A stretch of 64,000 nucleotides of DNA, taken from an uncultured Armatimonadetes bacterium (GTDB lineage: Bacteria > Armatimonadota > UBA5829 > DTJY01). The DNA lies in NCBI GenBank assembly GCA_963717145.1, contig OY970325.1, positions 448,001-512,000 of the forward strand, read 5' to 3'. Shown one piece after another: positions 2,902-53,124 of this stretch (the first letter of the stretch is position 1; every line of letters begins with the position of its first letter). A model generated the notes under the pieces. That model ran no database searches. It saw only the letters and a list, made by a program, of their open reading frames with translations, and had not been told where the DNA came from. A program made the position numbers and the translations under genes.

Positions 2902-3966
2902 ATGTCACAGATCAACATTGGTGTCATCGGCTACGGAATACGAAGCGGCGGACTGATCGGGGCGCTCGGCGCGTTCCCGTACGCCAACCTCGTCGCGATC
3001 GCCGACGTGAATCCCACGGCCAGAGGGAAGGCGGCAAAGGACCACCCCGGCGTCGCCGTGTTCGACGACTACCGGGCGATGCTCGACTCCGGCAAGGTCG
3101 AGGCCGTCATGGTGGAGTCGCCTCCCCACACCCACGCCGCGTGTGCCATCGAGGCGCTGAGTCGCGGCATCCACGTCCTGAGCGACGTGCCCGCCGTCCA
3201 CACCATCGAGGAGGACGACATGCTCTGGGCCGCCGGGCAGAGGAGCAAGGCGGTCTACTCCTTCGGCGCGACCACCAACTACTGGGCCTACGTCGACGCC
3301 TGCCTCGACATGAAGCGGAAGGGCCTGCTCGGCGATCCCTTCTACCTCGAGGCGGAGTACGTCGCGGACCTCGGCAACCTGCCCGAGATCACCCCCTGGC
3401 GCAAGCACTACGAGCCGATCCGCTACTGCACCCATTCGCTCGGACCGCTGCTGAAGTGGATCGATGAGGACCTCGCGGAGGTCTCCTGCTTCTCCACCGG
3501 CAGCCACATCCGCCACGACCCGAAGGAGGACGACGCCATGGTCGCCATCTTCCGCACGAAGTCGGGCGTCGTCGTCAAGCTGCTCACCTGCTTCGTCAAC
3601 AAGCACCCGATCCCATTCCACCGATACGTCTGCCACGGGACGAAGGGCTACTTCGAGAAGACCCAGCCGCTCCTTGGCGGAGAGTGCCAGGCCCTCTGGT
3701 CGACGGAGGCCGTCTACGGGATGCGCGGGCTGATGAACGTCCCGGTGACGGAGACGCGGCCCGAGCACGCGCACGATGTCGGGGTAGGGGGACACGGCGG
3801 CGCGGACGGGTTGATGGTCAAGGACTTCCTCGACTCGATCGCCGGCGACAAGCAGCCCGAGGTCAACATGCGCGAGGCCCTCCGCATGACCCTCCCCGGC
3901 CTCTTCGCCCTCCAGTCATCCCAGGCAGGGGGCGAGTTGACGAGGATATCCTATCCCTGGGAGTGA
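2902..3966 (+). CDS. Gfo/Idh/MocA family oxidoreductase
   Basis: N-terminal IGVIGYG Rossmann motif, HVLSDVP, YCTHSLGP, GGHGGAD; GGAGG RBS. Confidence 0.9.
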   Translation: MSQINIGVIGYGIRSGGLIGALGAFPYANLVAIADVNPTARGKAAKDHPGVAVFDDYRAMLDSGKVEAVMVESPPHTHAACAIEALSRGIHVLSDVPAVHTIEEDDMLWAAGQRSKAVYSFGATTNYWAYVDACLDMKRKGLLGDPFYLEAEYVADLGNLPEITPWRKHYEPIRYCTHSLGPLLKWIDEDLAEVSCFSTGSHIRHDPKEDDAMVAIFRTKSGVVVKLLTCFVNKHPIPFHRYVCHGTKGYFEKTQPLLGGECQALWSTEAVYGMRGLMNVPVTETRPEHAHDVGVGGHGGADGLMVKDFLDSIAGDKQPEVNMREALRMTLPGLFALQSSQAGGELTRISYPWE

Positions 3967-4001
3967 CCGCCGGGTCGTACCCCAACTCGTAATTGTACTC
4001 G
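3883..4001 (+). repeat. Direct repeat copy 1: 3' end of the oxidoreductase gene plus trailer
   Basis: Encodes RMTLPGLFALQSSQAGGELTRISYPWE*; similar to 5008-5093 and 5424-5547. Confidence 0.92.
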
Positions 4002-4852: not shown

Positions 4853-4946
4853 CAAAAAAATAGCAGGTCCCGGGTCGTAGGATCCCACCGACCAGCGGCT
4901 GCCGCCCGTAAGGGCGACCTACGAGAGTCCCCGCGCATACCTGCAT
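4853..4946 (-). ncRNA. Putative DUF3800-associated structured small RNA (~90 nt), convergent with the gene
   Basis: Nested stems GCAGGT/ACCTGC and TCGTAGG/CCTACGA, hairpin GCCC-GTAA-GGGC, U7 tract at the minus-strand 3' end, promoter just upstream. Confidence 0.65.
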
Positions 4947-5547: not shown

Positions 5548-5688
5548 GAGCGATGGGGGTATCCTCGGGGGGGTTGCACTTCCTCCTGCGTGCCCGAACC
5601 CAAGCAGGAAAGCATCCTCTCAGTATATAATCCATATAAGAGCAAGGAACACAGATGCGAGTTACCCCACCGCCCAGAGGAGCCGCTC

Positions 5689-7980
5689 ATGCCAATACTG
5701 ACCGAACAGGAACAGCAGGAAGTCATCCGCTACATCGAGGCCGGGAAGCCCCTGCCGGATAAGTACCGCTTCCTGCTGTTCGAGGAGAAGCGCGAGGTCG
5801 AACTCGTCTGGAACGGGAAGACCGGCGAGGTTACCAACGTTGTCCTGCCGTTTCAGGTGATCGAGCAGGTAGATGAACCCCGCGCTGAGAAGCCGGAGGA
5901 TACCTCCCTCCAACTCGGCATGTTCGACACTCGCGGTCGGCAGAAGAAGGGCTGGACCAACAAGCTTATCTGGGGCGACAACAAGCTGATCCTCTCCAGC
6001 CTGAAGAACGGTCCCCTGCGCGAGGAGATCGAGAAGCAGGGCGGACTCAAGCTGATCTACATCGACCCGCCGTTCGACGTAGGCGCGGACTTCTCGATGG
6101 ATATCGAGATCGGCGGCGACACCTTCACCAAGAAGCCGAACATCCTGGAGGAGATCGCCTACCGTGATACTTGGGGCAAGGGCGCGGATTCCTTCATCGC
6201 CATGATCTATGAGCGGCTCATGCTCATGCGCGATCTCTTGGCGGACGATGGAAGCATCTACGTGCACTGCGATTGGCGAGTGAATAGTCACATGAGATTT
6301 GTGCTCGATGAGATATTTGGGACAGATACCCAGATAAACGAGCTTATCTGGCAACGATCGAACCCTCACAACGATACAAAGCGGTATGGATGCATTCATG
6401 ACACCATCTTTGTGTATTCCAGGAGTGCGGATTACATCTTCCAGACTCAGTTCACTCCTCCTTCGGAGTCATACATCCGGAGTCACTTCACCCAAGAAGA
6501 CGAAGCTGGGCGGAAGTATACGCTCATGCCTCTGATGGCTAGTGGATCCGGACCAGCAAGACGTTTTGGAGACAAGACGTTGACTCCGCCTCCGGGGACT
6601 CACTGGCGATGGACGCAAGAGCGAATCGACGATGCTATGAACAACGGCATCATTGTTTTCACGAGTGGCGGCACTCCAAGATACAAATTCTATGCGGATC
6701 AGTCTAAGGGAAGGCCCCTGCAGTCAGTATGGAGTGATCTAGTTCCTATCAACTCCCAATCGGCAGAAAGATTGGACTACCCCACGCAGAAACCGGAAAC
6801 TCTGCTGGATCGGATCATCAGAGCATCGTCCAACGAGGGCGATCTTGTGGCCGACTTCTTCTGCGGGTCCGGCACTACCGCCGCTGTTGCCGAAAAGCTC
6901 GGGCGGAAGTGGATCGTCACCGACCTCGGCAAGTTCGCCATCCACACGACCCGTAAGCGGATGATCGGCGTTCAGCGCGAACTCAAGAAGGATGGCAAGG
7001 ACTACCGGGCGTTCGAAATCCTCAACCTCGGCAAGTACGAGCGCCAGCACTACATCGGCGTGAACCCCAACCTGCGTGAGGCCGAGCAGCAGAAGCAACT
7101 GGAGGAGAAGGAAGCCGCCTTCCTCGACCTGATTCTCCGCGCCTACCGCGCTGAGAAGATCGACGGATTCAACACCTTCCACGGCAAGAAGGCCGGGCGG
7201 CTCGTGGCGGTCGGCCCGGTGAACCTTCCCGTGACCCGCCTCTTCGTCGAAGAGGTCATCCTGGAGTGCCGCCAGAAGCACATCACCCGCGTGGACATCC
7301 TCAGCTTCGAGTTCGAGATGGGACTCTTCCCGAATGTCCTGGATGAGGCCCGCGCGAAGGGGATAGACATCGCCCCGAAGTATATCCCCGCCGAGGTATT
7401 CGACAAGCGCGCCGTCGAGAAGAACCAGGTCGTGTTCCATGACGTCTCCTTCATCGAAGTTACACCCCATGTGAAGGGAAACACTGTCGCGGTGGAACTG
7501 ACTGATTTCTCCGTGTTCTACTCCCAGGACTCCATCGCCAACGCAGAGGCGACGATCAAGGACAAGAGCAGCAGGATCGTGGTCGAGAAGGGGCAGATCG
7601 TCAAGGTAAGCAAGGACAAGGACGGCATCGTCACCCGCGAAGTCCTCACCAAGGAATGGACCGACTGGATTGACTACTGGGCGGTGGACTTCCAGTTCGA
7701 GAGCAAGCGGGAGATCATCCGCCGAAAGCTGATACCGGCGGAACAGGAGTCGCTCGACGGACTCGAACCGCCGCAGATGGACCTGGCGCAATACGAGGAA
7801 GTCTGGACCGGCGACTACATCTTCGAGAACGAGTGGCAGTCGTTCCGCACGAAGAAGGACCGATCACTGGAACTGACGAGCGTCTACCACGAGTGCACGA
7901 AGGGACGGCGGAAGGTGGCAGTCAAGGTCGTAGATATCTTCGGCAACGACACGATGACGATTGTGGAAGTCAGCGTCTAG
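5689..7980 (+). CDS. mod: Type III restriction-modification methyltransferase subunit
   Basis: LIYIDPPF catalytic motif, YPTQKPE, DFFCGSGTT (beta-class order), C-terminal VKVVDIFGND; upstream of a Res gene. Confidence 0.92.
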   Translation: MPILTEQEQQEVIRYIEAGKPLPDKYRFLLFEEKREVELVWNGKTGEVTNVVLPFQVIEQVDEPRAEKPEDTSLQLGMFDTRGRQKKGWTNKLIWGDNKLILSSLKNGPLREEIEKQGGLKLIYIDPPFDVGADFSMDIEIGGDTFTKKPNILEEIAYRDTWGKGADSFIAMIYERLMLMRDLLADDGSIYVHCDWRVNSHMRFVLDEIFGTDTQINELIWQRSNPHNDTKRYGCIHDTIFVYSRSADYIFQTQFTPPSESYIRSHFTQEDEAGRKYTLMPLMASGSGPARRFGDKTLTPPPGTHWRWTQERIDDAMNNGIIVFTSGGTPRYKFYADQSKGRPLQSVWSDLVPINSQSAERLDYPTQKPETLLDRIIRASSNEGDLVADFFCGSGTTAAVAEKLGRKWIVTDLGKFAIHTTRKRMIGVQRELKKDGKDYRAFEILNLGKYERQHYIGVNPNLREAEQQKQLEEKEAAFLDLILRAYRAEKIDGFNTFHGKKAGRLVAVGPVNLPVTRLFVEEVILECRQKHITRVDILSFEFEMGLFPNVLDEARAKGIDIAPKYIPAEVFDKRAVEKNQVVFHDVSFIEVTPHVKGNTVAVELTDFSVFYSQDSIANAEATIKDKSSRIVVEKGQIVKVSKDKDGIVTREVLTKEWTDWIDYWAVDFQFESKREIIRRKLIPAEQESLDGLEPPQMDLAQYEEVWTGDYIFENEWQSFRTKKDRSLELTSVYHECTKGRRKVAVKVVDIFGNDTMTIVEVSV

Positions 7981-8063: not shown

Positions 8064-8878
8064 GTGGCGGAGAAGATACAGGTTCAAGGAACAGAGATAA
8101 CGGTCATATCGCATCCACAGGGGGACTACATATCCCTGACGGATATGTTGAAGGCGAAAGACGGCGATTTCTTCATCTCGGACTGGTTGAGGAATCGCAA
8201 CACGGTCGAGTTTCTTGGCATCTGGGAGAGCGTCCACAACCCGAACTTCAATTATGGCGAATTCGCCGCAATTAGAAGTCAGGCAGGCCTTAACAGCTAC
8301 AAGATCAGCGTCAAGGAGTGGGTTAGCAGGACGCATGCCATAGGCCTGAAAGCAACCGCCGGAAGATATGGAGGCACCTACGCCCACAGGGATATCGCCT
8401 TTGAATTCGGCATGTGGATCAGTCCGGAATTCAAGATCTACCTGATCAAGGAGTTCCAACGGCTCAAGGACCAGGAGTTCAAGCAACTCGGATGGGACAT
8501 CCGCCGCAATCTCGTCAAGATCAACTACCGGATTCACACCGATGCCATCAAAGGGAATTTGATCCCGCCGGAACTCACCCGGCGGCAGATGGACTTGATA
8601 TACGCCTCCGAGGCGGATGTCCTGAACATGGCGCTCTTCGGTATGACGGCCAAGAAGTGGAGGGACAGCCATCCCGGCGAGAAGGGTAATATCCGAGACT
8701 ACGCGAACGTCTCGCAGCTTGTATGCCTCTCCAATCTCGAGAACCTGAACGCCCTCTTCATCAATGAGAAGATCCTCAGCCGGAACGGCTTCGCAAGTTG
8801 AACCAAATCGCGATTCAGCAGATGAAGATCCTATCGGAAGACTTCGGGATCAGGCAACTGGAGGCGGGGGACAAGTAA
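8064..8878 (+). CDS. KilA-N domain DNA-binding protein (frameshift near 8772)
   Basis: DYISLTD, WLRNRNTVEFLGIWE, GRYGGTYAHRDIAFEFGMW; one extra C at ~8772 gives ...PQPERLRKLNQIAIQQMKIL...DK* ending in TAATG overlap with res. Confidence 0.85.
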
Positions 8879-11547
8879 TGGCTCTGCACAAGGACTTTCC
8901 GGAATCACCTCACGCGATACTCGATCCGGCGATCCGCTGGTTCCCGGCAGACGAAGCTCTGCGCGAGAGCAGCATGGACAAGCTGCTGCCTCCTCTCGTC
9001 CCGGAACTTCGGAAGAAGGTGAAGGCCTGGAGAGAGAGCGGCTACGACAAGGCTACGGAGACAAGCCGCTCTTTGCTCAACTGGTGGTTCAAGACGCCGC
9101 ACCTTCTGCCCAAGTCCGACGGCACGATGGCCGAGTTCCAGTACTACTTCGCCCAGCGGGAAGCGCTGGAGACGATCATCTTTCTCTACGATGTTGTCGG
9201 AGTCAAAGACAAGTACGACATGATGCGCTTCGACGGCTCCGGCTTCGTATCCACCGGCATGTTCGACGAGGACTGGCGGCGCTTTGTCGTCAAGATGGCA
9301 ACCGGGGCGGGGAAGACCAAAGTGTTGAGCCTGGTCTTGGCGTGGAGCTTCTACCATAAGCTCTACGAGCCGGAGTCGGAACTGGCACGCAACTTCCTGG
9401 TGATCGCTCCAAATATCATAGTCCTCGATCGCATCTACAAGGACTTCAAGGGCCTGCGCATCTTCTTTGAGGATCCGGTGATACCGGATAACGGCATTGA
9501 CGGTCGCAACTGGCGTGATGACTTCCAGCTTACTCTGCACCTGCAGGACGATGTCCGCATCACTCATCCCACAGGTAACATATTCCTGACGAACATCCAT
9601 CGGGTCTATGCCGGTGATGACATTCCCCCTTCGCCCGAAGATGACAACACGATGGACTTCTTCCTGGGAAAGCGTCCGAGCGGCGCAACCACCGATTCCA
9701 AGGTCGATCTCGGGATGATCGTGCGGGATATCGATGAACTCGTTGTACTTAACGATGAGGCTCACCATATCCACGATCCGCGCATGGCCTGGTTCAAGTC
9801 CATTCAGGATATCCACAACCGCCTCAAGCAGAAGGGGGATGTGCTATCACTTCAGGTGGATGTCACCGCTACCCCAAGACACAACGATGGTGGGATCTTC
9901 GTGCAAACGGTCGCCGACTACCCCCTTGTCGAGGCGATCTGCCAGAACGTAGTCAAGCATCCTGTCCTTCCCGATGCACCGAGTCGTGCGAAGCTGCAGG
10001 AACGGCAGAGCCCCAGGTACACGGAGAAGTATGCCGACTACATAAACCTGGGCGTGACGGAATGGCGCAAGGCATATACCGAGCATGAGAAGATGGGCAA
10101 GAAGGCGATCCTGTTCGTCATGACCGACGACACCAAGAACTGCGATGATGTCGCGAAGTACCTGGAAGACACCTATGCCGATTTGAAAGGCGCAGTGCTG
10201 GTGATCCACACCAAAGACAATGGCGAGATCTCGGAGAGGAAGAAAGAGGACCTCGAAGTACTGCGCAAGCAGGCTAACGATATTGATGGAGAAGACAGTC
10301 CCTTTAAAGCCATCATCTCGGTTATGATGCTCAAAGAAGGATGGGACGTGCGCAATGTCACTACCATAGTCGGACTTCGGCCATACTCGGCGAAGAGCAA
10401 CATCCTCCCGGAGCAGACTCTTGGGAGGGGACTACGCCGCATGTATCCGGAGCAGTCCGTTCCCGAATTGGTTAGCGTCGTGGGTACGGACGCATTCATG
10501 GATTTCGTCGAGTCGATCCAGGCGGAAGGCGTCGTGCTCGAACGCCGGGCAATGGGCCAGGACACGGGCGCCATCACTCCCCTGGTCATCGAAGTGGACC
10601 AGGACAACGTGAAGAAGGATATCGATCAACTGGATATCGAGATTCCCGTGCTGAGTCCGCGAGTCTACCGTGAGTACAAGAACCTGAGCCAGCTAGATGA
10701 GACTGCCCTGGGTCATACCAAAGTGACCTACCGGCAGTTCAGCGAAGAGGAACAGCGGGAGATAGTCTTCCGGGACATCACGACCGGCGAGATCACACAC
10801 ACCACCATTCTCGATACGGCGGGCGTCGCGGACTATCGAAGCGTCATCGGCTACTTCGCTCAGACCATCATGAAGGACTTGCGCCTCGTCAGCGGCTATG
10901 ACGTTCTCTACGGCAAGGTCAAGGCCTTTGCTCAGGACCAGTTGTTTGACCAGCCGGTGGACCTTGAGACTCCGAACACCCTTCGCAACCTCTCCGAAGT
11001 ACCTGCGACGCGGACGCTGATCGAAACCTTCAAGAAGGCGATCAACGAGTTGACTATCCAGCAGAAAGGCGACGCTGAGATCAGGGATCACATCAAGTTG
11101 CGGGAGACTCGTCCCTTCGTGGTGAAGGAACAGGGGTACCTGATTCCGAGGAAGAGCATCTTCAACAAGATCATAGGCGACAGCGGCCTCGAACTCCTAT
11201 TCGCGGGTTTCCTGGACGACTGCGAAGACATCATCTCCTACGCCAAGAACTACCTGGCTGTGCGCTTCAAGCTGGACTATGTGAACGCCAACGGCGACAT
11301 CTCCAACTACTATCCCGATTTCCTGGTCAAGGCATCGGACCGCGAGGTCTTCATCGTGGAGACGAAGGGCCAGGAAGACCTCGATGTCCCGCTCAAGATG
11401 GAGCGGCTCAGGCAGTGGTGCGCGGATATCAACCATATCCAATCGGATGTTGTCTACGGTTACGTTTACGTTGACGAGGAAGGCTTCGAGAAGTATCGGC
11501 CCACGTCATTCCGGCAGCTGGTTGATGCGTTCCACGAGTACAAGTAG
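8878..11547 (+). CDS. res: Type III restriction endonuclease subunit (SF2 helicase-like ATPase + PD-(D/E)xK nuclease)
   Basis: KMATGAGKT Walker A, NDEAHH, LKEGWDV, QTLGRGLR, YYPDF...IVETKG. Confidence 0.92.
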   Translation: MALHKDFPESPHAILDPAIRWFPADEALRESSMDKLLPPLVPELRKKVKAWRESGYDKATETSRSLLNWWFKTPHLLPKSDGTMAEFQYYFAQREALETIIFLYDVVGVKDKYDMMRFDGSGFVSTGMFDEDWRRFVVKMATGAGKTKVLSLVLAWSFYHKLYEPESELARNFLVIAPNIIVLDRIYKDFKGLRIFFEDPVIPDNGIDGRNWRDDFQLTLHLQDDVRITHPTGNIFLTNIHRVYAGDDIPPSPEDDNTMDFFLGKRPSGATTDSKVDLGMIVRDIDELVVLNDEAHHIHDPRMAWFKSIQDIHNRLKQKGDVLSLQVDVTATPRHNDGGIFVQTVADYPLVEAICQNVVKHPVLPDAPSRAKLQERQSPRYTEKYADYINLGVTEWRKAYTEHEKMGKKAILFVMTDDTKNCDDVAKYLEDTYADLKGAVLVIHTKDNGEISERKKEDLEVLRKQANDIDGEDSPFKAIISVMMLKEGWDVRNVTTIVGLRPYSAKSNILPEQTLGRGLRRMYPEQSVPELVSVVGTDAFMDFVESIQAEGVVLERRAMGQDTGAITPLVIEVDQDNVKKDIDQLDIEIPVLSPRVYREYKNLSQLDETALGHTKVTYRQFSEEEQREIVFRDITTGEITHTTILDTAGVADYRSVIGYFAQTIMKDLRLVSGYDVLYGKVKAFAQDQLFDQPVDLETPNTLRNLSEVPATRTLIETFKKAINELTIQQKGDAEIRDHIKLRETRPFVVKEQGYLIPRKSIFNKIIGDSGLELLFAGFLDDCEDIISYAKNYLAVRFKLDYVNANGDISNYYPDFLVKASDREVFIVETKGQEDLDVPLKMERLRQWCADINHIQSDVVYGYVYVDEEGFEKYRPTSFRQLVDAFHEYK

Positions 11548-11595
11548 CCGACGTCGGATCGCCTCCCGGAGTCCAAGTCGGGCCTCAGGTGTATA

Positions 11596-11915
11596 GAAGT
11601 ATGACCTCCCGCTGTCAGCCGGAGACGATACTTCCATCGAAGTATGACCTCCGGGAGTCAGCCGGAGACGACTTGTCTATAGAAGTATGACCACCGGGAG
11701 TCAGCCGGAGACGATACTTCTATGGAAGTATGACCACCGGGAGTCAGCCGGAGACGACTTGTCAATAGAAGTATGACCACCGGGAGCTAGCCGGAGACGA
11801 CTTGTCTATAGAAGAATGACCACCGGGAGTCAGCCGGAGACGATACTTCTATGGAAGTATGACCACCGGGAGTCAGCCGGAGACGATACTTCTATGGAAG
11901 TATGACCACCGGGAG
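11596..11915. repeat. Tandem array A: ~7.4 copies of a 43-bp unit
   Basis: GAAGTATGAC starts at 11596, 11639, 11682, 11725, 11768, 11811, 11854, 11897; consensus GAAGTATGACCACCGGGAGTCAGCCGGAGACGA(TACTTC/CTTGTC)TAT(G/A). Confidence 0.95.
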
Positions 11916-12024
11916 ACGGCATCTGCTCATCATTCCCCCGCACGGACTGCTGCCCTCGGCAGCCCTCCGATCTGATCTTCGCCCCTTGTTCTCCTCTCGG
12001 CAAATGATATTGTCACAAGTTTCA

Positions 12025-12054
12025 CTAAAGCTCCCATTGTCATGACCCGACAAT
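12025..12054 (+). promoter_or_regulatory. Sigma28/SigD-like promoter
   Basis: CTAAAG-N16-CCGACAAT; equivalent element with the same spacing upstream of the paralog (34192-34163). Confidence 0.5.
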
Positions 12055-12273
12055 TGAATCGGCGGCTAATCTGTACCACAAGCCGCCGGGTTTTTGACCG
12101 ATCTGTGGGAAACCTCGCCAACCCTTCGTGTGGGAGTATGGGAGTGTGAGAGTGTGGGAGCATGGGAGTATGGGAGTGCGGGCGATCCGCGCTCCCACAC
12201 GCCCAGACTCCCACACGAAGGGTTTGGGGACGTCTCCGGGGCGGCTCGGTCACTTGAATGGAGGAAACTAGTT

Positions 12274-12951
12274 ATGGGTGATTGGATCCCCACTAAGGAC
12301 CTGGAACTCCAGGTATGGATGGACACGTTCCTGACCTACCTGAGCACGAATCTGGCGCACTTCGGGCTGGTGGCGGCGGATGTCCTCGATCTGACGGCTG
12401 CCTCGCCGGAGTTCAGCCAGGCGAGGGTTGCGGCGGAAGATGCCCGAATCGTGTATAAGGGCCTGGTTTCGGATAAGGGCGCCAAGCGCGATGCTCTCGT
12501 GGACCTGCTCAGGCCGATGGTCGCGCGGCTCCAGACCTTCCCCGCTACGACGAACCAGGACCGCGATTCGCTCGGGATTCCGAGACGCGGCGGGACATCC
12601 GCTGTCCCGCAGGCCATCGAACTGCTCCCGGACAGGCCGGTCGCAGGTATAAACATCGGCACGATCCGGAGGCATACGCTCCGCATCCAGAACGACATCG
12701 ATGGTACCATCACATCGGGCAAGCCCGAGGGCGTGAAAGCGGTCGAGGTCTGGGTGAAGGTCGGGGAAGCGCCGACGGGAGAGCCAGAGACGGACATGCG
12801 GTATGTGAACATGTCGACCAAGAATACGCTGGCGGTGGCGTTCGCGCCGGAGGATGGAAACAAGCAGGCGCATTACAAGATGCGCTGGATCTATAACGGC
12901 GGTCAGAAGGGCGGCTGGTCCGAGCTCCAGAGCGCGACGATCGCGGCCTAG
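12274..12951 (+). CDS. Uncharacterised protein (predicted helical N-terminus + FN3/Ig-like C-terminus), paralog 1
   Basis: GGAGG RBS; aligns over its full length with 33194..33856 (AHFGLV, DRDSLGI/DREALGI, MRW, WSE, ATIAA). Confidence 0.85.
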   Translation: MGDWIPTKDLELQVWMDTFLTYLSTNLAHFGLVAADVLDLTAASPEFSQARVAAEDARIVYKGLVSDKGAKRDALVDLLRPMVARLQTFPATTNQDRDSLGIPRRGGTSAVPQAIELLPDRPVAGINIGTIRRHTLRIQNDIDGTITSGKPEGVKAVEVWVKVGEAPTGEPETDMRYVNMSTKNTLAVAFAPEDGNKQAHYKMRWIYNGGQKGGWSELQSATIAA

Positions 12952-13105
12952 GGGAATGGTTGATGGTTGATGCCGGAGACCGGATGCCGGACGCCGGACA
13001 TGGCTGATGGCTGATGGTTGATGGCTGATGCCGGAGACCGGATACCGGAAATGGTTGATGGTTGATGGCTGATGGTTGATGCCGGAGACCGGATGCCGGA
13101 TGCCA
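12952..13105. repeat. Heptamer-repeat trailer (TGGTTGA/TGGCTGA and GCCGGAT/ACCGGAT)
   Basis: Direct reading; a closely similar trailer follows paralog 2 on the minus strand (33095-33193). Confidence 0.85.
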
Positions 13106-13146: not shown

Positions 13147-13176
13147 GGGGCGGGGGATGATTCCCCCGCCCCTTTT
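13147..13176 (+). terminator. Rho-independent terminator
   Basis: GGGGCGGGGGA-tgat-TCCCCCGCCCC-TTTT. Confidence 0.7.
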
Positions 13177-22585: not shown

Positions 22586-25014
22586 TGAAGCATCGCACGT
22601 TGATTTCTGGAATGCTGATCATGCTCAGTCTCGGAACAGTCTGCGCACAGGAGGGGAAGATGAACACCATCGAGCCGAATATGGAGATCGCAAAGACGTG
22701 GTGGGCCGACATGGAGAAGAAGTGGACCGTCGTCGGGTGGCCGGAGCACCGCACGCGGTTCAACGTCCTCTACGACGGGACGCTGGTCAACTACTTCGCA
22801 TTCCATCACCACCCGACCGCCCCCGCGGGTTCGAGGCCGGATATCCCCGAGCCGTTCACCCAGTTCGCCTTCACCCCGGCGGCAAGCATCGGCGAGGTCA
22901 CCGCGCCCGCCTACAACATCCCTGCCGACTACCACGATGTCGTCCAGGGATGGGCCGACTCCGAGACGCCGGTGCTCTGGAGCGAATGGGCCTGGCACGG
23001 GTATCTCCTCCGCTCGCAGGTCTTCGTGCACACTCCAGGTGGCAAGAAGCTTGAGCGGGGCGACGAGCCGCTCTTCGCATGGGTCCGGCTCGCCGTCCAC
23101 TACGTTTCGCCCGGCCTTCCGTTGGAGCAGACTCCCGGCTTCGGCATCAGGATCAACTCCTTCGCGGTCAACGCCTCGATGGAGGTGAAGCACAACCTGA
23201 ACACCCTCAACGCCAAGCCGAAGTATCCGCGGGAGTTGAAGGCGGAATATTCGCCGATGGGTAGTGGCCGTGCCTCTGTGCCGGCCAGCGAGGTGACAGA
23301 GGCCGGCACAGAGGCACGGCCACTACTTGTCCTCGAACCGGACGGCCGGGTACGGATGGCCCTCGCGCCTGGATCAGCCGTCAAGGCCGAGTTCAAGGCC
23401 GGCGCTCCCACCGCCGATGACAGCCTCCTGTACGTCCAGCTTCCCCCGACGCAGGGATCGCACGTCGATCTCCTCATCCCCATGCTCCCGACCGACCGCG
23501 ACACCTTCGACAAGGAACTCGCGCTGGGATACGACGGCGCATTCAAGGAGGCGGAGGCCTTCTGGAAGAAGACGTCCGCCGCCACGAAGTTCGAGGTCCC
23601 GGAGGAAGGCATCACCCAGGCGATCAGGCGCAACCTGCAGATCAGCCGCATCACCTCCGAGAAGTGGCCCGACGCCGGGACCTACGTCATGACCGGCGGG
23701 TTCTGGTACGGGATCGCCTGCTGGGGGACTCCCGTGTGCACGGCGATCGTCCGATTCCTCGACCCGCTCGGGTATCATGGCGTCGTGGAGGAGTACCTGA
23801 GGCCGTTCAAGGACACGCAGGGTAGGGTGCTTCCCCCCGGTGACGGATTGAAGCAGCATCCCGGATACCTCGGCGTCCCACCCGAGACGGCGATCATCAA
23901 CTGGCTGCCCGACCACGGCGCGATCCTCTGGACGATGGCCGAGCACGGGCTGCTCACCCACGACGCGAAGTTCATCGAGGAGTACACGCCGGTGATCGTC
24001 AAGGCGTGCGAGTGGATACGCGACGCCCGGCGGACGACGGTCGAGGGCGCGGTGCCGGGGATCATGCCGCCCGCGGGGGCGTCGGACGATGAGTCGCACA
24101 TCCAGAACTGCTGGACCGACGGCTGGATCTACAAGGGGCTCACCTCCGCGGTCGACTTCCTGAAGATGACCGGCAACCCGCGCGCCGCCGAGTTCGAGGC
24201 CGAGGCGAAGGAGTACAAGGCGACATTCCAGAAGGCGTTCCGGGCGAAGGCGAAGACGACCGCGACTTGGACCGACGACGCGGGGAAGGTGCGGCACATG
24301 GTCCCGTTCTCCCTCTCGAAGGAGCAGGACTGGCAGTGGCGATTCCTATTCTACCTTGACACCGGTCCGATGCACCTCGTGTTCTCGGAGTTGATGGACG
24401 CCGATGACCCGCTGATGAAGGATGCGGTCGCATGGTATCGCGAGGGCCCGCCGTCGAAGATGTATCGTCCCTACGGCGACCTCACTCATGTTCCATCGCT
24501 GAGGTACGAGATGTCGAGCTGGGAGTGCTGCTACAGTTGGAACGTCTACCACAACTGGCAGCTCGGCGACCGCCGGTATTTCCTGGAGGGGCTCTATTCG
24601 CAGTTCGCCGGCGCGATGTCACAGCAGACATACACCGTCTGCGAATCACGCGGCGGGATGACGTCGGGCATCTTCTGGATTCCTGCGTTCGATGTCGCGC
24701 GTCAGGCGGTGATCGACGATCAACTGGAGGAGGGGAAGCTCCATCTCCTCCGCCTCTGCCCGCTCGCCTGGCTCGAGGGTAAGGGGTCGAACTTCGAGAA
24801 CATGCCCACGCGCTTCGGCCCGGTTGATCTGCATGCGAAACTTACCGGCAGCCAACTCGATGTCTCGTACTCGATCCGCCCACATTCCCCATCAACCATG
24901 AACCCTCAACCATCAACCATTCTCCATCTCCCGGCGGGCCTCAAGTCCGTCACCCTCAACGGCAAGCCTCTGAAGTGGGATGGGATGGCGGAGAAGGTGG
25001 AGATCCGGCCGTGA
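22585..25014 (+). CDS. Large secreted protein, probable (alpha/alpha)6-barrel glycoside-hydrolase-like
   Basis: Signal peptide; DHGAILW, GIMPP, WTDGWIYKGL, C-terminal PTRFGPV; two in-frame repeat insertions. Confidence 0.6.
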   Translation: MKHRTLISGMLIMLSLGTVCAQEGKMNTIEPNMEIAKTWWADMEKKWTVVGWPEHRTRFNVLYDGTLVNYFAFHHHPTAPAGSRPDIPEPFTQFAFTPAASIGEVTAPAYNIPADYHDVVQGWADSETPVLWSEWAWHGYLLRSQVFVHTPGGKKLERGDEPLFAWVRLAVHYVSPGLPLEQTPGFGIRINSFAVNASMEVKHNLNTLNAKPKYPRELKAEYSPMGSGRASVPASEVTEAGTEARPLLVLEPDGRVRMALAPGSAVKAEFKAGAPTADDSLLYVQLPPTQGSHVDLLIPMLPTDRDTFDKELALGYDGAFKEAEAFWKKTSAATKFEVPEEGITQAIRRNLQISRITSEKWPDAGTYVMTGGFWYGIACWGTPVCTAIVRFLDPLGYHGVVEEYLRPFKDTQGRVLPPGDGLKQHPGYLGVPPETAIINWLPDHGAILWTMAEHGLLTHDAKFIEEYTPVIVKACEWIRDARRTTVEGAVPGIMPPAGASDDESHIQNCWTDGWIYKGLTSAVDFLKMTGNPRAAEFEAEAKEYKATFQKAFRAKAKTTATWTDDAGKVRHMVPFSLSKEQDWQWRFLFYLDTGPMHLVFSELMDADDPLMKDAVAWYREGPPSKMYRPYGDLTHVPSLRYEMSSWECCYSWNVYHNWQLGDRRYFLEGLYSQFAGAMSQQTYTVCESRGGMTSGIFWIPAFDVARQAVIDDQLEEGKLHLLRLCPLAWLEGKGSNFENMPTRFGPVDLHAKLTGSQLDVSYSIRPHSPSTMNPQPSTILHLPAGLKSVTLNGKPLKWDGMAEKVEIRP
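23261..23326. repeat. GTAG...CTAC REP-like inverted repeat inside coding sequence
   Basis: 23261-23286 is the exact reverse complement of 23301-23326. Confidence 0.88.
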
Positions 25015-30292: not shown

Positions 30293-30376
30293 TGGAGTGG
30301 GAGAGTGGGAGAGTGGGGGAGTCCCGTCCCTCCTCCCTCCTCCCCGCGTCCCTCCTCTCCAACGTAGAGGGTCGCC

Positions 30377-33014: not shown

Positions 33015-33094
33015 CACGAAAAGAAGGGCGGAGCACCCATGCGCCCCGCCCCTGTTCGGAATGGTTAATGAGGGATGGTTCATGGTTAATGTGG

Positions 33095-33193
33095 GGCCGG
33101 TCTCCCGTCAACCATCTCCGGTATCCGGTCTCCGGCATCAACCATTCCCGATATCCGGCATCAACCATCAGCCATCAACCATCAACCATTCCC
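33095..33193. repeat. Heptamer-repeat trailer of paralog 2
   Basis: Minus strand reads GGGAATGGTTGATGGTTGATGGCTGATGGTTGATGCCGG..., matching the trailer of paralog 1. Confidence 0.8.
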
Positions 33194-33856
33194 TTATGCC
33201 GCTATCGTCGCCGCCTCGGTCTCGCTCCAGTTGCCGATCTGACCCTCGCGGTTCACCCAGCGAAGCATGTAGTACACCGTCTTCCCCGCATCATCAGGAG
33301 CATACTCCAGGCTGAACGGGCTCTTGTACGCCACCGCCGCAAGCTCGCCATCGCCCGCGCCGGAGGGCAGTGTGCCGACCGTGCGCCAGATCTCGCAGCC
33401 GATCGCACCGACCGGCCTGCTTCGGCTCACCGTCGAGCCGTTCGTGTTCCGAATGCGGATCACGTGCTTCAGGCGGGCGTTCACATCGATCAGTCCGAGC
33501 GGCTTGTCCACACTCGCTCCCGCCGGCACCTGCGGCGCGGCAGTCTTGATCCCGAGCGCCTCGCGGTCGGCATCAGTCGTGTTCGGGCTGGCATTGATCT
33601 TCTTCACCAGCGCACGGATGACGGTGTCGAACGCCTTGCGCTCCTCATTCTTCGCCGAGCAGTAGCTCTGCGCCGTTGCCTGAGCGGTGTAGTGCTGCGC
33701 CAGGAGGGTGTCCCACTCCGGATGATGGTCCGCGAACGGCACCAGATCACCCACGACCAGTCCGAAGTGCGCGATGTTCGGCTCCAGATAAGCGATAAAC
33801 GTGTCGGCCCAGGCGGTGAAGTCAGCATCCTTGGCCGGCATATAATTGTTACTCAT
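33194..33856 (-). CDS. Uncharacterised protein (predicted helical N-terminus + FN3/Ig-like C-terminus), paralog 2
   Basis: Full-length similarity to 12274..12951; GAAGGA RBS-like sequence upstream. Confidence 0.85.
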   Translation of the reverse strand: MSNNYMPAKDADFTAWADTFIAYLEPNIAHFGLVVGDLVPFADHHPEWDTLLAQHYTAQATAQSYCSAKNEERKAFDTVIRALVKKINASPNTTDADREALGIKTAAPQVPAGASVDKPLGLIDVNARLKHVIRIRNTNGSTVSRSRPVGAIGCEIWRTVGTLPSGAGDGELAAVAYKSPFSLEYAPDDAGKTVYYMLRWVNREGQIGNWSETEAATIAA

Positions 33857-34162
33857 TGTCTTTTGGTTCCTTCCATCAGAAATGATCCGGATTCAGCGGA
33901 AGGACACCGCGACGAACAGCCGGTGGATGGCCCAAGGTCCGGCATGAACCATGAACCATTCCCCATGCCCCATGAACCATCATCCATCAACCATTCCCCG
34001 CATCCCTTCCCGAATTCCGGTTGCAGCCGGTCGCGATAAGATCACCGCCCCGGCCACCATTCACAGCCCACGGCCGATCGTCAACCATGCACTGTTCACT
34101 GCTCACTGTTCACCTGTCCGCGATCACCCCTTCGTCAAGAGCCATATTTGATTACAACACCG

Positions 34163-34192
34163 ATTATCGGAAAACGGATTCTTTGACTATAG
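34163..34192 (-). promoter_or_regulatory. Sigma28/SigD-like promoter
   Basis: Minus strand CTATAG-N16-CCGATAAT. Confidence 0.5.
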
Positions 34193-34223: not shown

Positions 34224-34540
34224 TAGGGGAATTTGGCCGTGGCGTTACTCAGTCAGGCGGGGGGGAATTTCGATTAGGCGACTGCTTTATTCAGTTTAGG
34301 CGGGGGGGAATTTCGATTAGGGCACTGCTTTATTCAGTTTAGGCGGGGGGGAATTTCGATTAGGGCACTGCTTTATTCAGTTTAGGCAGGGGGAATTTGG
34401 ATTAGGCCACTGCTTTATTCAGTTTAGGCGGGGGGGAATTTCGATTTGGCCACTGCTTTATTCAGTTTAGGCGGGGGGGAATTTCGATTTGGCCACTGCC
34501 TTATTCAGTTTAGGCAGGGGGGAATCTCGGTTTGGGCACG
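34224..34540. repeat. Tandem array B: ~7 copies of a 43-bp unit
   Basis: ACTGC starts at 34281, 34324, 34367, 34409, 34452, 34495; consensus CACTGCTTTATTCAGTTTAGGCGGGGGGGAATTTCGATTAGG(G/C), degenerate at both ends. Confidence 0.95.
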
Positions 34541-34990
34541 GGGAAATATGAGCGTGGGCATCGGGAAATGGGCGTCCGGCGGGCGGAGAAAGACCACTCA
34601 GCGCCGGCCTGATCGAGCAGAGGTCGCGCCCCAGTCGAGCAACATCCCGGCCAAACCACAGCAGGGGTGGGGGATCATCGAACAAGGAAGCCCGACCCAT
34701 CGCCGTCCGCCTCGCCCCGACCAAACCCGCCGGCCTATGGAACTGAGGTCAGGAGCCGTGCAAGGCGAGGTGAATCCTATAGGGAAGACCCCGGCGGAAC
34801 CAAGAGGCGACTGTCCATCCTCCCTGTTACACTTGCATAGCCTGCAACTGGCAATAGGATTGGTCGCATGAAGGTTGTTGAGTCCCTTGCATCGAAAGGC
34901 TTTGCTATGGCATACTTGTGAGGATATGCCGTGAAGCTCGGACATGCGTTGATACTGCATGTCCTCGGTTCCGTGTTGTGCAGGTGCGAT

Positions 34991-37288
34991 ATGCCTAAGT
35001 TTACCGTAGACACACATCTTTTTCGAGAACTGGGCGAGCTTCTTGTCGGTCGTGATTCCACGGCTCTGGTTGAGCTCGTTAAGAACTCCTATGACGCCGA
35101 TGCCACCCATGTTCAGGTCTATGGCGAGAGTCTTGATACGCCCGAGAATGGCTTCATCATCATTCGCGATGATGGTGTTGGGATGAATTCCAGGCAGTTC
35201 GAGGAAGGATTCCTTCGTGTGGCGTCAAGGATCAAGAGCCATGGCGACCCAAGATCGCCTAGATTCGGGCGGCGATATACTGGCGCCAAAGGCATCGGCA
35301 GGCTGGCTGCTCATAAGCTCGCAAGATACATTGCCATAGAATCGTTTCCATGGACATCCACTGGCGACGATGCTGAACCCATCGATGCCAGAATTGACTG
35401 GGATATAGTTGAGGCGCACCAGAACTTGGACGAGCTGGAAGATTCAGATGCAATAACGCTGGCGCCCCGAGCCAGCGCCGAAGGCTCACAGCGCGGAACG
35501 ACGATCACTTTGTCCAGGCTTCGTCGTCGGTGGACATCTTCTGAGCGCTCACGATTCTTCACCGAGGTGACCAGTTTCACGCCACCTGAGCAACTTGTGA
35601 ACCTACCTGATGGTGTTACCGATGAGGATTTGCTCTTCCTTACACCACGGATATGTGACACCACCAGCAAGGATCCGGGTTTCACGGTTGAACTCCATGG
35701 TGAGCTACAGGCAGGTGAAGACTACTGGGTAGCCCTTGCCCAGACCGCAGACTGGCTCATCGAGATAGACGCTAGCCGCGATCATGATGGTGCTCCTGCA
35801 GGCGCATGCAAGGTACGATACAAGGTTACACCGACGAAGTTGACACGTAAAGACTTACGCAGTGCTCGGTCTCGTTTCTTTGAAATGGACCACCCTTCTG
35901 CTGACGACGGGCCATTCTTCCAAGCCCGAATCCTGATTCGCGAAGGTCATCTGGCGGAACAAGGACTCGACACCGGGTGGTTGACCAAATCCAATGGCGT
36001 TAGAGTCTTTATGGAAGGCTTCCGCGTACTACCGTACGGTGAGCCTGGCAATGACTGGTTGGAGATCGACCGAGGTTATTCACGACGGCAGAGGCAACTG
36101 GCATTCCTCAAGGATTTGCCTGTCGGGGTACCGATGGACGAGGATGAGGGACTGATGGCTCTGCGAAATGCCAACTATTTCGGGGCGGTGTTCCTCACTG
36201 AGGAAGACGCCCCTGGTCTTCAAATGCTGGTGAACCGCGAGGGCTTTATCCCCGAAGCCAGCTATGAGACATTGTGCACCCTGGTCCGCATCGGCATCGA
36301 TTTGTCGACGCGGGTAAGAGCCTACTTCGGTCGCGAGCATCGTGAGCTATGGAGATTGGAGCGAGAGATTCAGCCTGAGATCGAGGTCGAGCCCGTTCGT
36401 CGGCTGGAGCTTCGGGAGCAGATCGAGGCGTCGGTCAGAAGGGCAGCAGAGTTCGCGCAACAGGCTCGGATACAAGCAGCAGAAGGGGATTTTGGTTCAG
36501 CAATAGAGTATATCGACCAAGCCGCGGAGGAGTTCGCCTTGACGTCCGAGGCCTCCGAACGGCTGATGACCGAGCGGGCCCTGACGCAAGTTCTCGCTGC
36601 TGTTGGTCTGCAGATGGCGGCCTTCGTGCATGAGATCAATGCTCTGCTGGGAATGGCTAATACCTTGCAGGTTGCACTCGAAGCTATATCCAGGGACAGG
36701 GCGCTGCCTGCTTCTGCGAGGACTAGGATCGGACAGCTTGTGGGGTCGGTAGGGGACCTTCGACGGGCAATAGAGCGTCAGGCATCGTACCTAGTCGATG
36801 TTGTCTCCGCCGATGCTAGACGGCGACGGTCAAGGCAAAGAATGGCAGAGAGGTTTGACGCTAGTAGAAGACTCGTCCAAACTTCGGCGGACAGAAGGGG
36901 AATCGAGATTGTGAATGATATCCCGAGCGACTTCCGAACACCACCTATGTTCCCGGCTGAGGTCACCGTTATCTTTACCAACCTTCTGACCAATGCAGTC
37001 AAAGCCGCCGGTGATAACGGTCGAATCCATGCATCCGGCGTCAGAGATGGAGCCGTCCTGCGTATCCGGGTGGAGAACACTGGTGCGGCGGTACCCTCAT
37101 CGGAGGGCGAGAGGTGGTTCAGACCCCTTGAATCGACAACGACAGAGATAGATCCATTCTTGGGACAGGGAATGGGGATGGGTCTTCCGATCACCAGGAA
37201 TGTTCTGGCTGAATATGGGGCTACGGCCCGGTTTGTGGAACCGAGCCATGGCTATGCAACAGCAGTCGAACTCACCTTCAAGGAGTGA
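34991..37288 (+). CDS. GHKL (MORC/Hsp90-like) ATPase fused to a histidine kinase module
   Basis: N-terminal ELVKNSYDADA, DDGVGM, GAKGIGRLA; C-terminal FVHEIN H-box, NLLTNAVKA, ENTG, GMGMGL. Confidence 0.88.
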   Translation: MPKFTVDTHLFRELGELLVGRDSTALVELVKNSYDADATHVQVYGESLDTPENGFIIIRDDGVGMNSRQFEEGFLRVASRIKSHGDPRSPRFGRRYTGAKGIGRLAAHKLARYIAIESFPWTSTGDDAEPIDARIDWDIVEAHQNLDELEDSDAITLAPRASAEGSQRGTTITLSRLRRRWTSSERSRFFTEVTSFTPPEQLVNLPDGVTDEDLLFLTPRICDTTSKDPGFTVELHGELQAGEDYWVALAQTADWLIEIDASRDHDGAPAGACKVRYKVTPTKLTRKDLRSARSRFFEMDHPSADDGPFFQARILIREGHLAEQGLDTGWLTKSNGVRVFMEGFRVLPYGEPGNDWLEIDRGYSRRQRQLAFLKDLPVGVPMDEDEGLMALRNANYFGAVFLTEEDAPGLQMLVNREGFIPEASYETLCTLVRIGIDLSTRVRAYFGREHRELWRLEREIQPEIEVEPVRRLELREQIEASVRRAAEFAQQARIQAAEGDFGSAIEYIDQAAEEFALTSEASERLMTERALTQVLAAVGLQMAAFVHEINALLGMANTLQVALEAISRDRALPASARTRIGQLVGSVGDLRRAIERQASYLVDVVSADARRRRSRQRMAERFDASRRLVQTSADRRGIEIVNDIPSDFRTPPMFPAEVTVIFTNLLTNAVKAAGDNGRIHASGVRDGAVLRIRVENTGAAVPSSEGERWFRPLESTTTEIDPFLGQGMGMGLPITRNVLAEYGATARFVEPSHGYATAVELTFKE

Positions 37289-52308: not shown

Positions 52309-53088
52309 TTACTCGGCCACTAACTGGTGTTCCCTGGTGAAGAACTGCCGGTAGCTCCAAAGTGCGGCGGCGAGACTTGCCACGGTCACCGCGGCGGTGA
52401 TCATGTAGACGACCACGATCTGGTATCTCACCGCCTCGGTCGGCGACTGGCCTGCGATGATCTGCCCGGTCATCATCCCCGGCAGCGAGACTATGCCGAC
52501 GGTCATCATCGAGTTGATGTTGGGGATCATGGCTGCCTTTGCCGCCGCCTTGAGCGCGGGATCGGCGGCCTGGCGCGATGTCGCCCCGAGTGCGAGCGCG
52601 GTCTCGATCTGCAGCCGACGGAGCTTGATCTCCGCCGAGATTCGGTTCATCGCCAGCGACGCGCCGTTCATCGAGTTGCCGAGAATCATACCAGAGATAG
52701 GGATGACGTACCACGGAGACGCCTCGATGATCCCGAGCCCCACGAGGATCGCGAGCGTCCCGAGCCCTCCGATGCCGACCGACAGTACCGCGATCCACTT
52801 CGCGCCCGGGATGTCCTTCGACCGCTGAGCCGCGGTGTAGCCCGCGACGGCGGTCATCACGGCGAGGGTGAGCAGCACCCAGTACCACTTGTCGGCGCGG
52901 AATATTCCCTCGAGCACATATCCGACCGCCATGAGTTGCACGAGCGAGCGGATCGTGCCGACCAGCAGGTCCTTCTCCAGCCCGAGCCGTTCGAGCCGCG
53001 AGAGCACGACCGTGATGACGATCAGTACCAGCGCGACTCCGAGTTCCCCGTAGCTGATCTCCGCGTAGTTATGGGCGTCAACCATCAA
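52309..53088 (-). CDS. fetB: FetB/YbbM (UPF0014) ABC transporter permease
   Basis: RSLVQLMAVGYVL, IPISGMILGNSM, GIVSLPGMMTGQIIAG, AVRYQI. Confidence 0.85.
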   Translation of the reverse strand: MMVDAHNYAEISYGELGVALVLIVITVVLSRLERLGLEKDLLVGTIRSLVQLMAVGYVLEGIFRADKWYWVLLTLAVMTAVAGYTAAQRSKDIPGAKWIAVLSVGIGGLGTLAILVGLGIIEASPWYVIPISGMILGNSMNGASLAMNRISAEIKLRRLQIETALALGATSRQAADPALKAAAKAAMIPNINSMMTVGIVSLPGMMTGQIIAGQSPTEAVRYQIVVVYMITAAVTVASLAAALWSYRQFFTREHQLVAE

Positions 53089-53124
53089 CCATCCGCTCCC
53101 CCATCAACCATGAACCATCAGCCA

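Follow-up and report, generated by a model that had tools for sequence, protein, structure and literature searches.

Tandem arrays with a 21 bp base period precede genes of an undescribed helical–FN3 protein family in at least six phyla

A 64,000 bp stretch from an uncultured Armatimonadetes bacterium (assembly GCA_963717145.1, contig OY970325.1, positions 448,001 to 512,000; hereafter the window) carries two paralogous genes for a small protein with a helical N-terminal and an FN3-like C-terminal domain, each preceded by a tandem array of a 43 bp unit. Relatives of this gene in at least six phyla also follow tandem arrays, and the base period conserved across these phyla is 21 bp, with 42 and 63 bp as higher-order units. 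The pairing of array and gene appears to be undescribed. As it departs from each system to which we likened it in a defining feature (fold, partner gene or plasmid context), we classify it as a gene with its own upstream repeat array, and there is a real chance that it represents a new class.

Two arrays and two paralogous genes in the window

The elements that define the two copies of the module are as follows (TRF, Tandem Repeats Finder; ORF, open reading frame).

11592-11915, + strand: array 1, 7.5 copies of a 43 bp unit, 87% matches, score 466 (TRF); 5' edge of module copy 1
12260-12265, + strand: ribosome-binding site GGAGGA of copy 1
12274-12951, + strand: gene copy 1, 225 aa, N-terminal helical and C-terminal FN3 domain (ORF; homologues align from this ATG)
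33194-33856, - strand: gene copy 2, 220 aa, paralogue of copy 1 (ORF; BLASTP)
34255-34529, - strand: array 2, 6.4 copies of a 43 bp unit, 94% matches, score 473 (TRF); upstream of copy 2

An initial annotation of this DNA had described a 43 bp array ahead of a 225 aa gene together with a second pair of array and paralogue, and TRF and the ORFs confirmed both pairs. The array ends 359 bp before the ATG in copy 1 and 399 bp before it in copy 2, and BLASTP aligns the two proteins over 223 aa at 32% identity (E = 3e-46). Self-match at lag 43 reaches 0.875 in array 1, where the next unrelated lag gives 0.37, and 0.849 in array 2, where matches are spaced by 43, 43, 42, 43 and 43 bp, so that one unit measures 42 bp. 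TRF also reported both arrays as rows of 129/128 bp, that is, as three-unit higher-order repeats. The units of array 1 and array 2 are unrelated in sequence, and within the 64 kb each unit core is confined to its own array (6/6 matches each, against a chance expectation of 0.00).

The near-palindrome that had been reported at several unit junctions of array 1, ATACTTCTATGGAAGTAT, spans four of them, three exactly and one with two mismatches. Array 1 is self-complementary on both strands (z ~ -5.8 and -5.6); self-complementarity of array 2 is not significant on either strand. The two unit variants said to alternate in array 1 occur in the order A B A B B A A, which is not strict alternation. 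The array does directly follow the res gene of a type III restriction-modification (R-M) system, as had been stated, beginning 45 bp past the stop codon of this ResIII/endonuclease gene (8764-11547), and no promoter-like site was found in the interval before it.

Association of the array with the gene across phyla

Genomes other than the window's own were scanned, one for each species. Of 126 confirmed relatives, the best 80 were kept, giving 79 loci (designated L with a number). The best matches to the window protein among the fetched loci were 35–37% identical. The loci derive from Planctomycetota (Phycisphaerae, Pirellulales and others), Acidobacteriota (Pyrinomonadaceae), the cyanobacterium Hormoscilla, Verrucomicrobiota, Bacteroidota, Ignavibacteriae and Chthonomonadales, and the association spans at least six phyla.

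The initial annotation had proposed tabulating repeat periods upstream of homologues, and the outcome was positive. Within 700 bp upstream of the gene, TRF reported a period of 20–22 bp or multiples of it at 45 of the 64 loci that combine a near-complete N-terminus with at least 300 bp of upstream sequence. A self-match lag test drew on 63 loci, those whose gene is full-length and which have 500 bp or more of upstream sequence; 16 others had been dropped as truncated. The best lag was 21 (26 loci), 42 (13), 62 (2) or 63 (7) in 48 of these; one of the remaining loci gave a lag of 14, and 14 fell below the score threshold. Among 564 other 700 bp segments from the same loci, used as controls, 18 reached the threshold and only 6 did so at lag 21 or 63. 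An array is thus present in 76% of loci against ~1% of controls.

Arrays of homologues consist mostly of 21-nt units in 4–15 copies. Effective unit lengths of 20.7, 21 and 21.5 bp correspond to 10.3–10.75 bp per helical turn. The suggestion of a conserved period of 43 therefore survives in part: a period is conserved, its base value is 21 bp, and 43 bp upstream of the gene was seen only in this window.

Some arrays lie away from the family gene. Arrays of period 21 or 42 were found upstream of other genes at L005 (1347-1457, before a Bro-N protein) and L014 (151-287), the latter preceding a methylase fragment that heads a row of genes ending in the family gene; further off-gene arrays occupy L002 1372-1451, L004 3521-3677, L011 2430-2524 and L027 819-1027. 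At three related Pyrinomonadaceae loci other genes, one of them an IS1595 transposase, separate the family gene from an array 1.3–3.5 kb upstream of it. Second copies or fragments of the family gene, in tandem or pseudogenised, lie within a few kb at L038, L050, L062, L068, L077, L078 and L079.

Extent and sequence conservation of the module

Two loci of one genome assembly (L006 and L017), whose proteins are 94% identical, are similar over a stretch that begins with the first array unit and closes shortly after the stop codon, with no likeness beyond it, and differ by a 42 bp, two-unit insertion. The duplication in this genome thus took in array, leader and ORF as a single block. Similarity between L005 and L012 extends ~80 bp upstream of the array, with a 21 bp deletion between them.

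Among relatives at 70–100% protein identity, the arrays are 44–94% identical in most pairs, against 72–99% for the coding DNA, and the 150 bp upstream of the arrays are mostly unrelated. Units of same-genome paralogues at 52–70% protein identity match at 0.43–0.57 against a null mean of 0.50, that is, at chance level. A core GGAGCGG / ATGAC / ACTCC recurs in a subset of arrays, and AGCGG is present in 17/45 arrays against 3.8 under the null, in lineages that are not independent. The earlier view that array sequence is free accordingly applies to same-genome paralogues, whose units are unrelated, and does not extend to close relatives, which at 75% or more protein identity conserve their arrays about as well as coding DNA, nor to the recurring core.

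When ORFs of at least 80 aa from the 79 loci and the window were clustered, no family of neighbouring genes occurred in more than six sources. One cluster of 19 loci, considered as a candidate for a conserved partner gene, proved to be the antisense frame of the family gene itself and was rejected. Pfam searches on the 130 nearest neighbours returned a mixture of defence and polysaccharide genes, including DNA methylases, TIR, SIR2-STAND, Fic, HEPN/nucleotidyltransferase, caspase, Bro-N and transposase proteins, a mix that is typical of variable islands.

Promoter-like motifs between array and gene

In both window copies a sigma-28-like motif lies between the array and the gene; its function as a promoter is presumed from the pattern.

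12025-12054, + strand: sigma-28-like promoter motif CTAAAG-N16-CCGACAAT, copy 1 (pattern search)
34163-34192, - strand: sigma-28-like promoter motif CTATAG-N16-CCGATAAT, copy 2 (pattern search)

The promoter geometry that had been claimed for both copies is indeed shared. CTAWAG-N16-CCGAYAAT has exactly two matches in the window, at 12025-12054 (+) and 34192-34163 (-), a count that is not an independent test because the pattern was derived from those two sites. The sigma-28 (FliA) consensus is TAAA-N15-GCCGATAA. Two Phycisphaerae loci (L001 and L003) show the same geometry between array and gene, and both window copies and these two loci carry TAWM-N17-CCGAYAW, one base longer than the sigma-28 spacing. 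A motif of this kind lies near the gene in only 3/64 homologous loci, so that the sigma-28-like promoter is specific to this lineage rather than family-wide, and it drops out as a component of the module, which the initial annotation had taken it to be.

A different arrangement follows the array in four of six aligned Pyrinomonadaceae loci, namely a block composed of an A-tract, TTGnnn, N17 and TATCAT. In some Planctomycetota a second 21 bp repeat, TTGAYTTGCGGCTAAsTCrA, precedes arrays with the ATGAC core (L016 4579-4669; L049 ~3950-4000); at L049, two units of this type read, by eye, TTGACT-N17-TACTTT, and adjacent units could jointly form a promoter.

The protein family

An exhaustive HMMER search returned 1422 cluster representatives at E <= 0.001, a number that drops to 390 at E <= 1e-10; almost all measure ~220 aa. 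The source genome probably holds at least eight family copies, copy 2 included. Neither window protein matched Pfam, NCBIfam, PHROGs or PADLOC, a family profile built from 105 members matched nothing in Pfam or among PDB sequences, and Atlas searches gave no known family. The protein thus belongs to no described family. A phage or plasmid origin was rejected, as tblastn searches of 72,556 plasmid and 50,697 phage records gave no homologue.

The AlphaFold2 model of copy 1 (predicted local distance difference test, pLDDT, 93.9) comprises helices at residues 9-25, 38-88 and 94-100, a linker and a beta-sandwich at 120-222. Foldseek against PDB gave 24 matches at E <= 0.001, and those listed are all FN3 domains or FN3-containing proteins. 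The modelled C-terminal domain is a seven-stranded beta-sandwich that superposes on solved FN3 domains and is classed as FN3 by its fold, with no Pfam fn3 match in the sequence search. The helical and FN3-like character first proposed from the sequence is in this way borne out by model and structural comparison. The N-terminal domain modelled alone (pLDDT 95.2) had no PDB match at E <= 0.001 in Foldseek.

For this helical domain, a symmetric dimer is predicted. The homodimer prediction scored 0.72, against 0.00 for the best of three controls; the 0.72 mark was reached by 20/30 proteins solved as same-chain pairs and by 1/23 solved as single chains, counts that hold only roughly here because our own alignment was used. 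Three runs shared at least 95% of contacts with a partner pLDDT of at least 84, and the modelled interface is formed by residues 4-103 of the helical domain, in antiparallel packing.

Six longer homologues were inspected for domain fusions and have N-terminal extensions, none with a recognisable extra domain. In two public protein predictions (P0109 and P0121) the extensions are clearly translated arrays, which appear as false heptad or 14-residue repeats. Since these gene models read through arrays, arrays are also present in metagenome members of the family.

Comparison with described systems

Full-text literature searches found no description of the protein family or its arrays, and, as the initial annotation had stated, no described system was found to fit. 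The layout resembles three kinds of system, namely iteron or partition pairs, activator sites with 21 bp spacing and type III toxin–antitoxin loci, and departs from each in a defining feature.

Iterons beside rep genes and the partition pairs parC-ParR and sopC-SopB consist of 5–12 direct repeats of ~20–22 bp (43 bp in sopC) beside the gene of the binder, are phased on one helix face and often serve as autoregulatory operators as well. Here, too, a row of repeats adjoins a gene, but the protein lacks a winged-helix, ribbon-helix-helix or ParB fold, neither a partner ATPase nor any other conserved neighbour accompanies it, and the module is chromosomal and multi-copy, with no homologue in the plasmid and phage records. 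Sites of AraC/XylS and LytTR activators are spaced by 21 bp, come in twos or threes and are bound by a separate regulator with a known DNA-binding domain. What they share with the present arrays is direct repeats at a distance of two helical turns, placed immediately upstream of the -35 region, whereas the arrays have 4–15 units and the module contains no such regulator. In the MS2 and PP7 operators, a coat-protein dimer binds a single hairpin of ~19 nt with a conserved loop. Units of the clade of arrays with the ATGAC core can likewise be drawn as 19-nt hairpins with a conserved loop, separated by 2-nt linkers, to which binding is putative; the natural operators are single hairpins, in contrast to tandem arrays, and the protein folds are unrelated.

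Among repeat families, STRR are heptamer repeats of cyanobacteria, and the short heptamers and octamers of the window behave like REP/BIME or STRR dispersed families, being short and intergenic or located in untranslated regions (UTRs). The 43 bp units do not: each array has its own sequence, to which its units are confined within the 64 kb. Because of this confinement, dispersed REP elements (PMC3733652) do not fit. A CRISPR array was rejected, the units being arranged head to tail without spacers and no cas family occurring among the scanned neighbours.

Toxin–antitoxin (TA) loci of type III (toxIN, cptIN and tenpIN) offer the remaining comparison. In such systems, array RNA is produced, cut into units and counteracts a toxic protein. 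In a published survey, type III families have a tandem array upstream of the toxin gene, with units of 31–62 nt in 1.9–5.6 copies, and their criteria include a short palindromic repeat as terminator between array and gene (PMC3401426). The likeness consists of a lone gene preceded by a gene-specific direct-repeat array, a unit length that is constant within a family while its sequence varies, and a frequently chromosomal, multi-copy occurrence in defence contexts (PMC3401426). The protein, in contrast, is a helical and FN3 protein and no ToxN/AbiQ/CptN/TenpN-type endoribonuclease by Pfam, NCBIfam, PADLOC or Foldseek. Measured against the ranges quoted, the 43 nt of the window fall inside but its 6.4–7.5 copies do not, and homologues mostly have 21 nt in 4–15 copies. 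Terminators are not enriched between array and gene, and promoter-like motifs stand there in two lineages; in the window, a terminator-like hairpin occupies this interval in copy 1 (12059-12096) and none was found in copy 2.

Possible functions of the array

The initial annotation had offered phased protein-binding sites or a processed RNA, and these two are the leading readings here as well. The likeliest single reading, by a narrow margin and at less than an even chance, is that the array works as DNA, as a row of phased protein-binding sites immediately ahead of the gene's promoter. With a spacing of two helical turns, all sites would face the same side of the helix. A dimeric protein may occupy them cooperatively, the simplest candidate being the module's own product, and its binding would set or autoregulate expression, which gain or loss of units might in turn tune. 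The data show that array and gene are associated, what the period is, that the module's boundary lies at the array, that promoter-like motifs stand downstream of the array in two lineages, and that a dimer is predicted; binding at the array, the binder and the regulatory effect are what we infer. The conservation of arrays among relatives, taken as a mark of selection, and the joint duplication of array and gene also favour this reading, as does the absence of a uniform strand preference. Self-complementarity was detected in 28/47 arrays, against 5/60 control segments, and on neither strand in 19/47; across the full set of 47, folding is better on the gene strand in 25 cases and on the opposite strand in 22 (Wilcoxon p = 0.27).

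Several observations weigh against binding sites in DNA. The family is near neutral (median isoelectric point 6.45), with a net charge of -3 for the N-domain and +2 for the C-domain, and no recognised DNA-binding fold was found in the protein by Pfam, Foldseek, NCBIfam or profile searches. No conserved regulator gene accompanies the module at the 79 loci or among the 130 neighbours. A few arrays of period 21 stand upstream of unrelated genes. A generic sigma-70 scan did not favour the interval between array and gene (7/45 loci against 5, 3 and 4 in controls). Arrays of the Pirellulales-type clade stop 48–92 bp short of the start codon, with a conserved A/T-rich block and then the ribosome-binding site coming next, so that little space is left for a canonical promoter. 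To these are added signs of RNA structure in the same, Planctomycetota-centred clade, where in 14 loci the units form 7 bp stems with an invariant, asymmetric ATGAC loop. Pair cells of this clade are 74.6% paired against 61.6 +/- 2.1 in shuffles, and its covariation score is 0.493 against 0.303 when shuffled (0/500 shuffles reach either value). The gene strand carries ATGAC 48 times and the opposite strand 5 times, and in 29 structured arrays G-U pairs make up 193/1463 (13.2%) on the gene strand against 103/1371 (7.5%) on the opposite one.

These signs speak for an array that is transcribed in sense, whether within the 5' leader or on an upstream transcript of its own, and acts as RNA, a substantial possibility that we place second. 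The 21-nt units (42/43 nt where two differ) would be hairpins or single-stranded motifs, each bound by the dimeric module protein, whose geometry would set the constant pitch while unit sequence co-evolves with each paralogue. All seven stem pairs of the ATGAC clade show changes on both sides, and slid controls are 29–48% paired. The 29 structured arrays have a weak strand bias, with 18 in which the gene strand folds more stably and 11 in which the opposite strand does (Wilcoxon p = 0.047; binomial p = 0.26), and the short gap to the start codon in the Pirellulales-type clade also counts for this reading. At L054 only, inspection by eye gave a -10-like CATAAT before the array and a hairpin with a T7 run after it, ahead of a second promoter-like site. 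Neighbours are often of defence type (DNA methylases, TIR, SIR2-STAND, Fic, HEPN, caspase), and a tandem array upstream of a lone gene, with the window's 43 nt within 31–62 nt, is the layout of the type III criteria, although 21-nt units in 4–15 copies lie outside its ranges (PMC3401426). Against an RNA, terminator-like hairpins between array and gene are not enriched (10/47 on the gene strand; 7, 10 and 7 of 47 in controls), the promoter-like motifs of two lineages lie 3' of the array, and array 1 follows the res stop codon at 45 bp without a promoter-like site before it. The 19/47 arrays without predicted structure include array 2, some arrays fold better antisense, and the L075 array shows wobble pairs only, with no compensatory change. 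Searches of structure and profiles revealed no resemblance of the protein to a nuclease or a known RNA binder. Rfam gave no match on the arrays of the window and 17 loci, and a known RNA family was rejected.

Less probable, indeed unlikely in our estimate, is that the array is structural DNA whose exact sequence is irrelevant, or the target of a general host factor. In-phase bends could curve the DNA upstream of the promoter, aiding polymerase wrapping or drawing a nucleoid protein, or the array could be a contingency locus where slippage, by adding or removing units, shifts expression. A period that is kept while the units of same-genome paralogues diverge to chance would suit this, as would the 21 and 42 bp indels between near-identical copies, the similar arrays upstream of unrelated genes and a protein that does not look like a DNA binder. 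A constraint on shape predicts neither the conservation of array sequence among close relatives, which is about that of coding DNA, nor the shared core; periods of one or three turns would serve curvature equally well, yet were not seen; and the strong tie to one gene family would be left unexplained. The higher-order blocks of 42, 63 and 129 bp, with the unit indels, show turnover by unequal exchange, and tandem reiteration of REP clusters is known (PMC3733652). We nevertheless consider it very improbable that the arrays are non-functional satellite-like DNA or REP-like clusters that hitch-hike, their period kept by descent and slippage homogenisation, since they persist across at least six phyla far above the control frequency, since their sequence is conserved among relatives where the DNA just upstream is not, and since the units in the window do not occur outside their own array as those of dispersed REPs do.

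Least credible of all is a coding role, with heptad repeats (21 bp being seven codons) as an N-terminal extension or leader peptide. A period of 21 is a multiple of 3, 38/45 arrays have at least one open frame, and some public gene predictions read through arrays (P0109, P0121), but chance open frames are expected in short GC-rich repeats. Arrays are not coding because periods of 43 and 62 shift the frame and 7/45 arrays are closed in all six frames, in keeping with the non-coding nature first judged likely for the 43 bp arrays; homologues of ~220 aa, moreover, align from a conserved N-terminal DYIP motif directly after the ribosome-binding site.

Leaders, trailers and surroundings in the window

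Further elements of the two copies are listed below.

12059-12096, + strand: terminator-like stem-loop of copy 1, 9 pairs, 13-nt loop, then a T run, directly after the promoter-like motif (scan and RNA fold)
12108-12237, + strand: long leader hairpin of copy 1, direct then inverted TGGGAGTR octamers (TRF)
12952-13105, + strand: 3' trailer of copy 1, heptamers ATGGYTG and GATGCCG (TRF)
13147-13172, + strand: intrinsic terminator of copy 1, 11 pairs then TTTTCG (terminator scan)
33024-33053, - strand: intrinsic terminator of copy 2, 13 pairs then CTTTTCG (terminator scan)
33095-33193, - strand: 3' trailer of copy 2, heptamer repeats (TRF; alignment with the copy 1 trailer)
33943-33994, - strand: heptamer repeats in the leader of copy 2 (TRF; pattern search)

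The stem-loop of copy 1 starts only ~5 nt past the -10-like element. The leader of copy 1 (12055-12273, +) folds at -116.6 kcal/mol (z = -7.7), and its Rfam matches are microRNA-like, below threshold and merely reflect the hairpin. Each trailer lies between its gene and an intrinsic terminator and is therefore 3' UTR. The two trailers have near-identical stretches of 20–40 nt in common despite the 32% identity of the proteins, and GATGCCGGAGACCGGATRCCGG is restricted to them within the window (4/4 matches). Heptamers of the ATGGTTG type recur elsewhere in the window, at 24890-24920, 53076-53132 and 33943-33994, and short repeats follow the gene on its 3' side in 15/74 homologous loci, compared with 129/2008 background bins. 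The heptamer trailer, originally counted as part of the module, thus belongs to a repeat family dispersed through this genome and is not module-specific. TGGGAGTR octamers occur at 901-974, 12131-12213 and 30298-30313; together with the ATGGTTG heptamers they make up two dispersed families of short tandem repeats at intergenic or UTR sites.

The sole above-threshold Rfam match of the window is a DUF3800-VII RNA (4857-4945, -; 85.3 bits, E = 1.5e-16) just upstream of the type III R-M genes, a mod-like gene (5590-7980) and res. Divergent from copy 2 lies a gene for a 785 aa protein with two GHKL ATPase domains (34931-37288, +), for which PADLOC gave a weak match to models of type II restriction enzymes. 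This GHKL, restriction-like gene beside copy 2 and the R-M genes beside copy 1 suggest that both copies reside in defence-type islands.

Significance of the module

The family is large, with its 1422 representatives, yet it is unnamed and lacks both a Pfam model and a solved relative of its N-terminal domain. Its cis element, with a geometry conserved across phyla, is a rare feature and provides a concrete handle on function. It also exposes an annotation error, as some public gene models translate arrays into false heptad-repeat N-termini. We regard as possible, though doubtful, a new class of single-gene modules in which a dimeric helical–FN3 protein is paired with a cognate array of 21-nt pitch, in many orthogonal copies per genome and widespread in Planctomycetota, Acidobacteriota, Verrucomicrobiota, Cyanobacteria and Bacteroidota; most likely, such a class would combine repeat RNA and protein, with the logic of type III TA or defence built on an unrelated protein.

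Should the module's own product bind the array, every genome would hold a set of orthogonal protein–array pairs, which would amount to natural regulatory or tagging parts and might embody a new defence or addiction logic. If the array is instead a generic upstream element, it would represent a new promoter architecture in phyla about whose transcription signals little is known.

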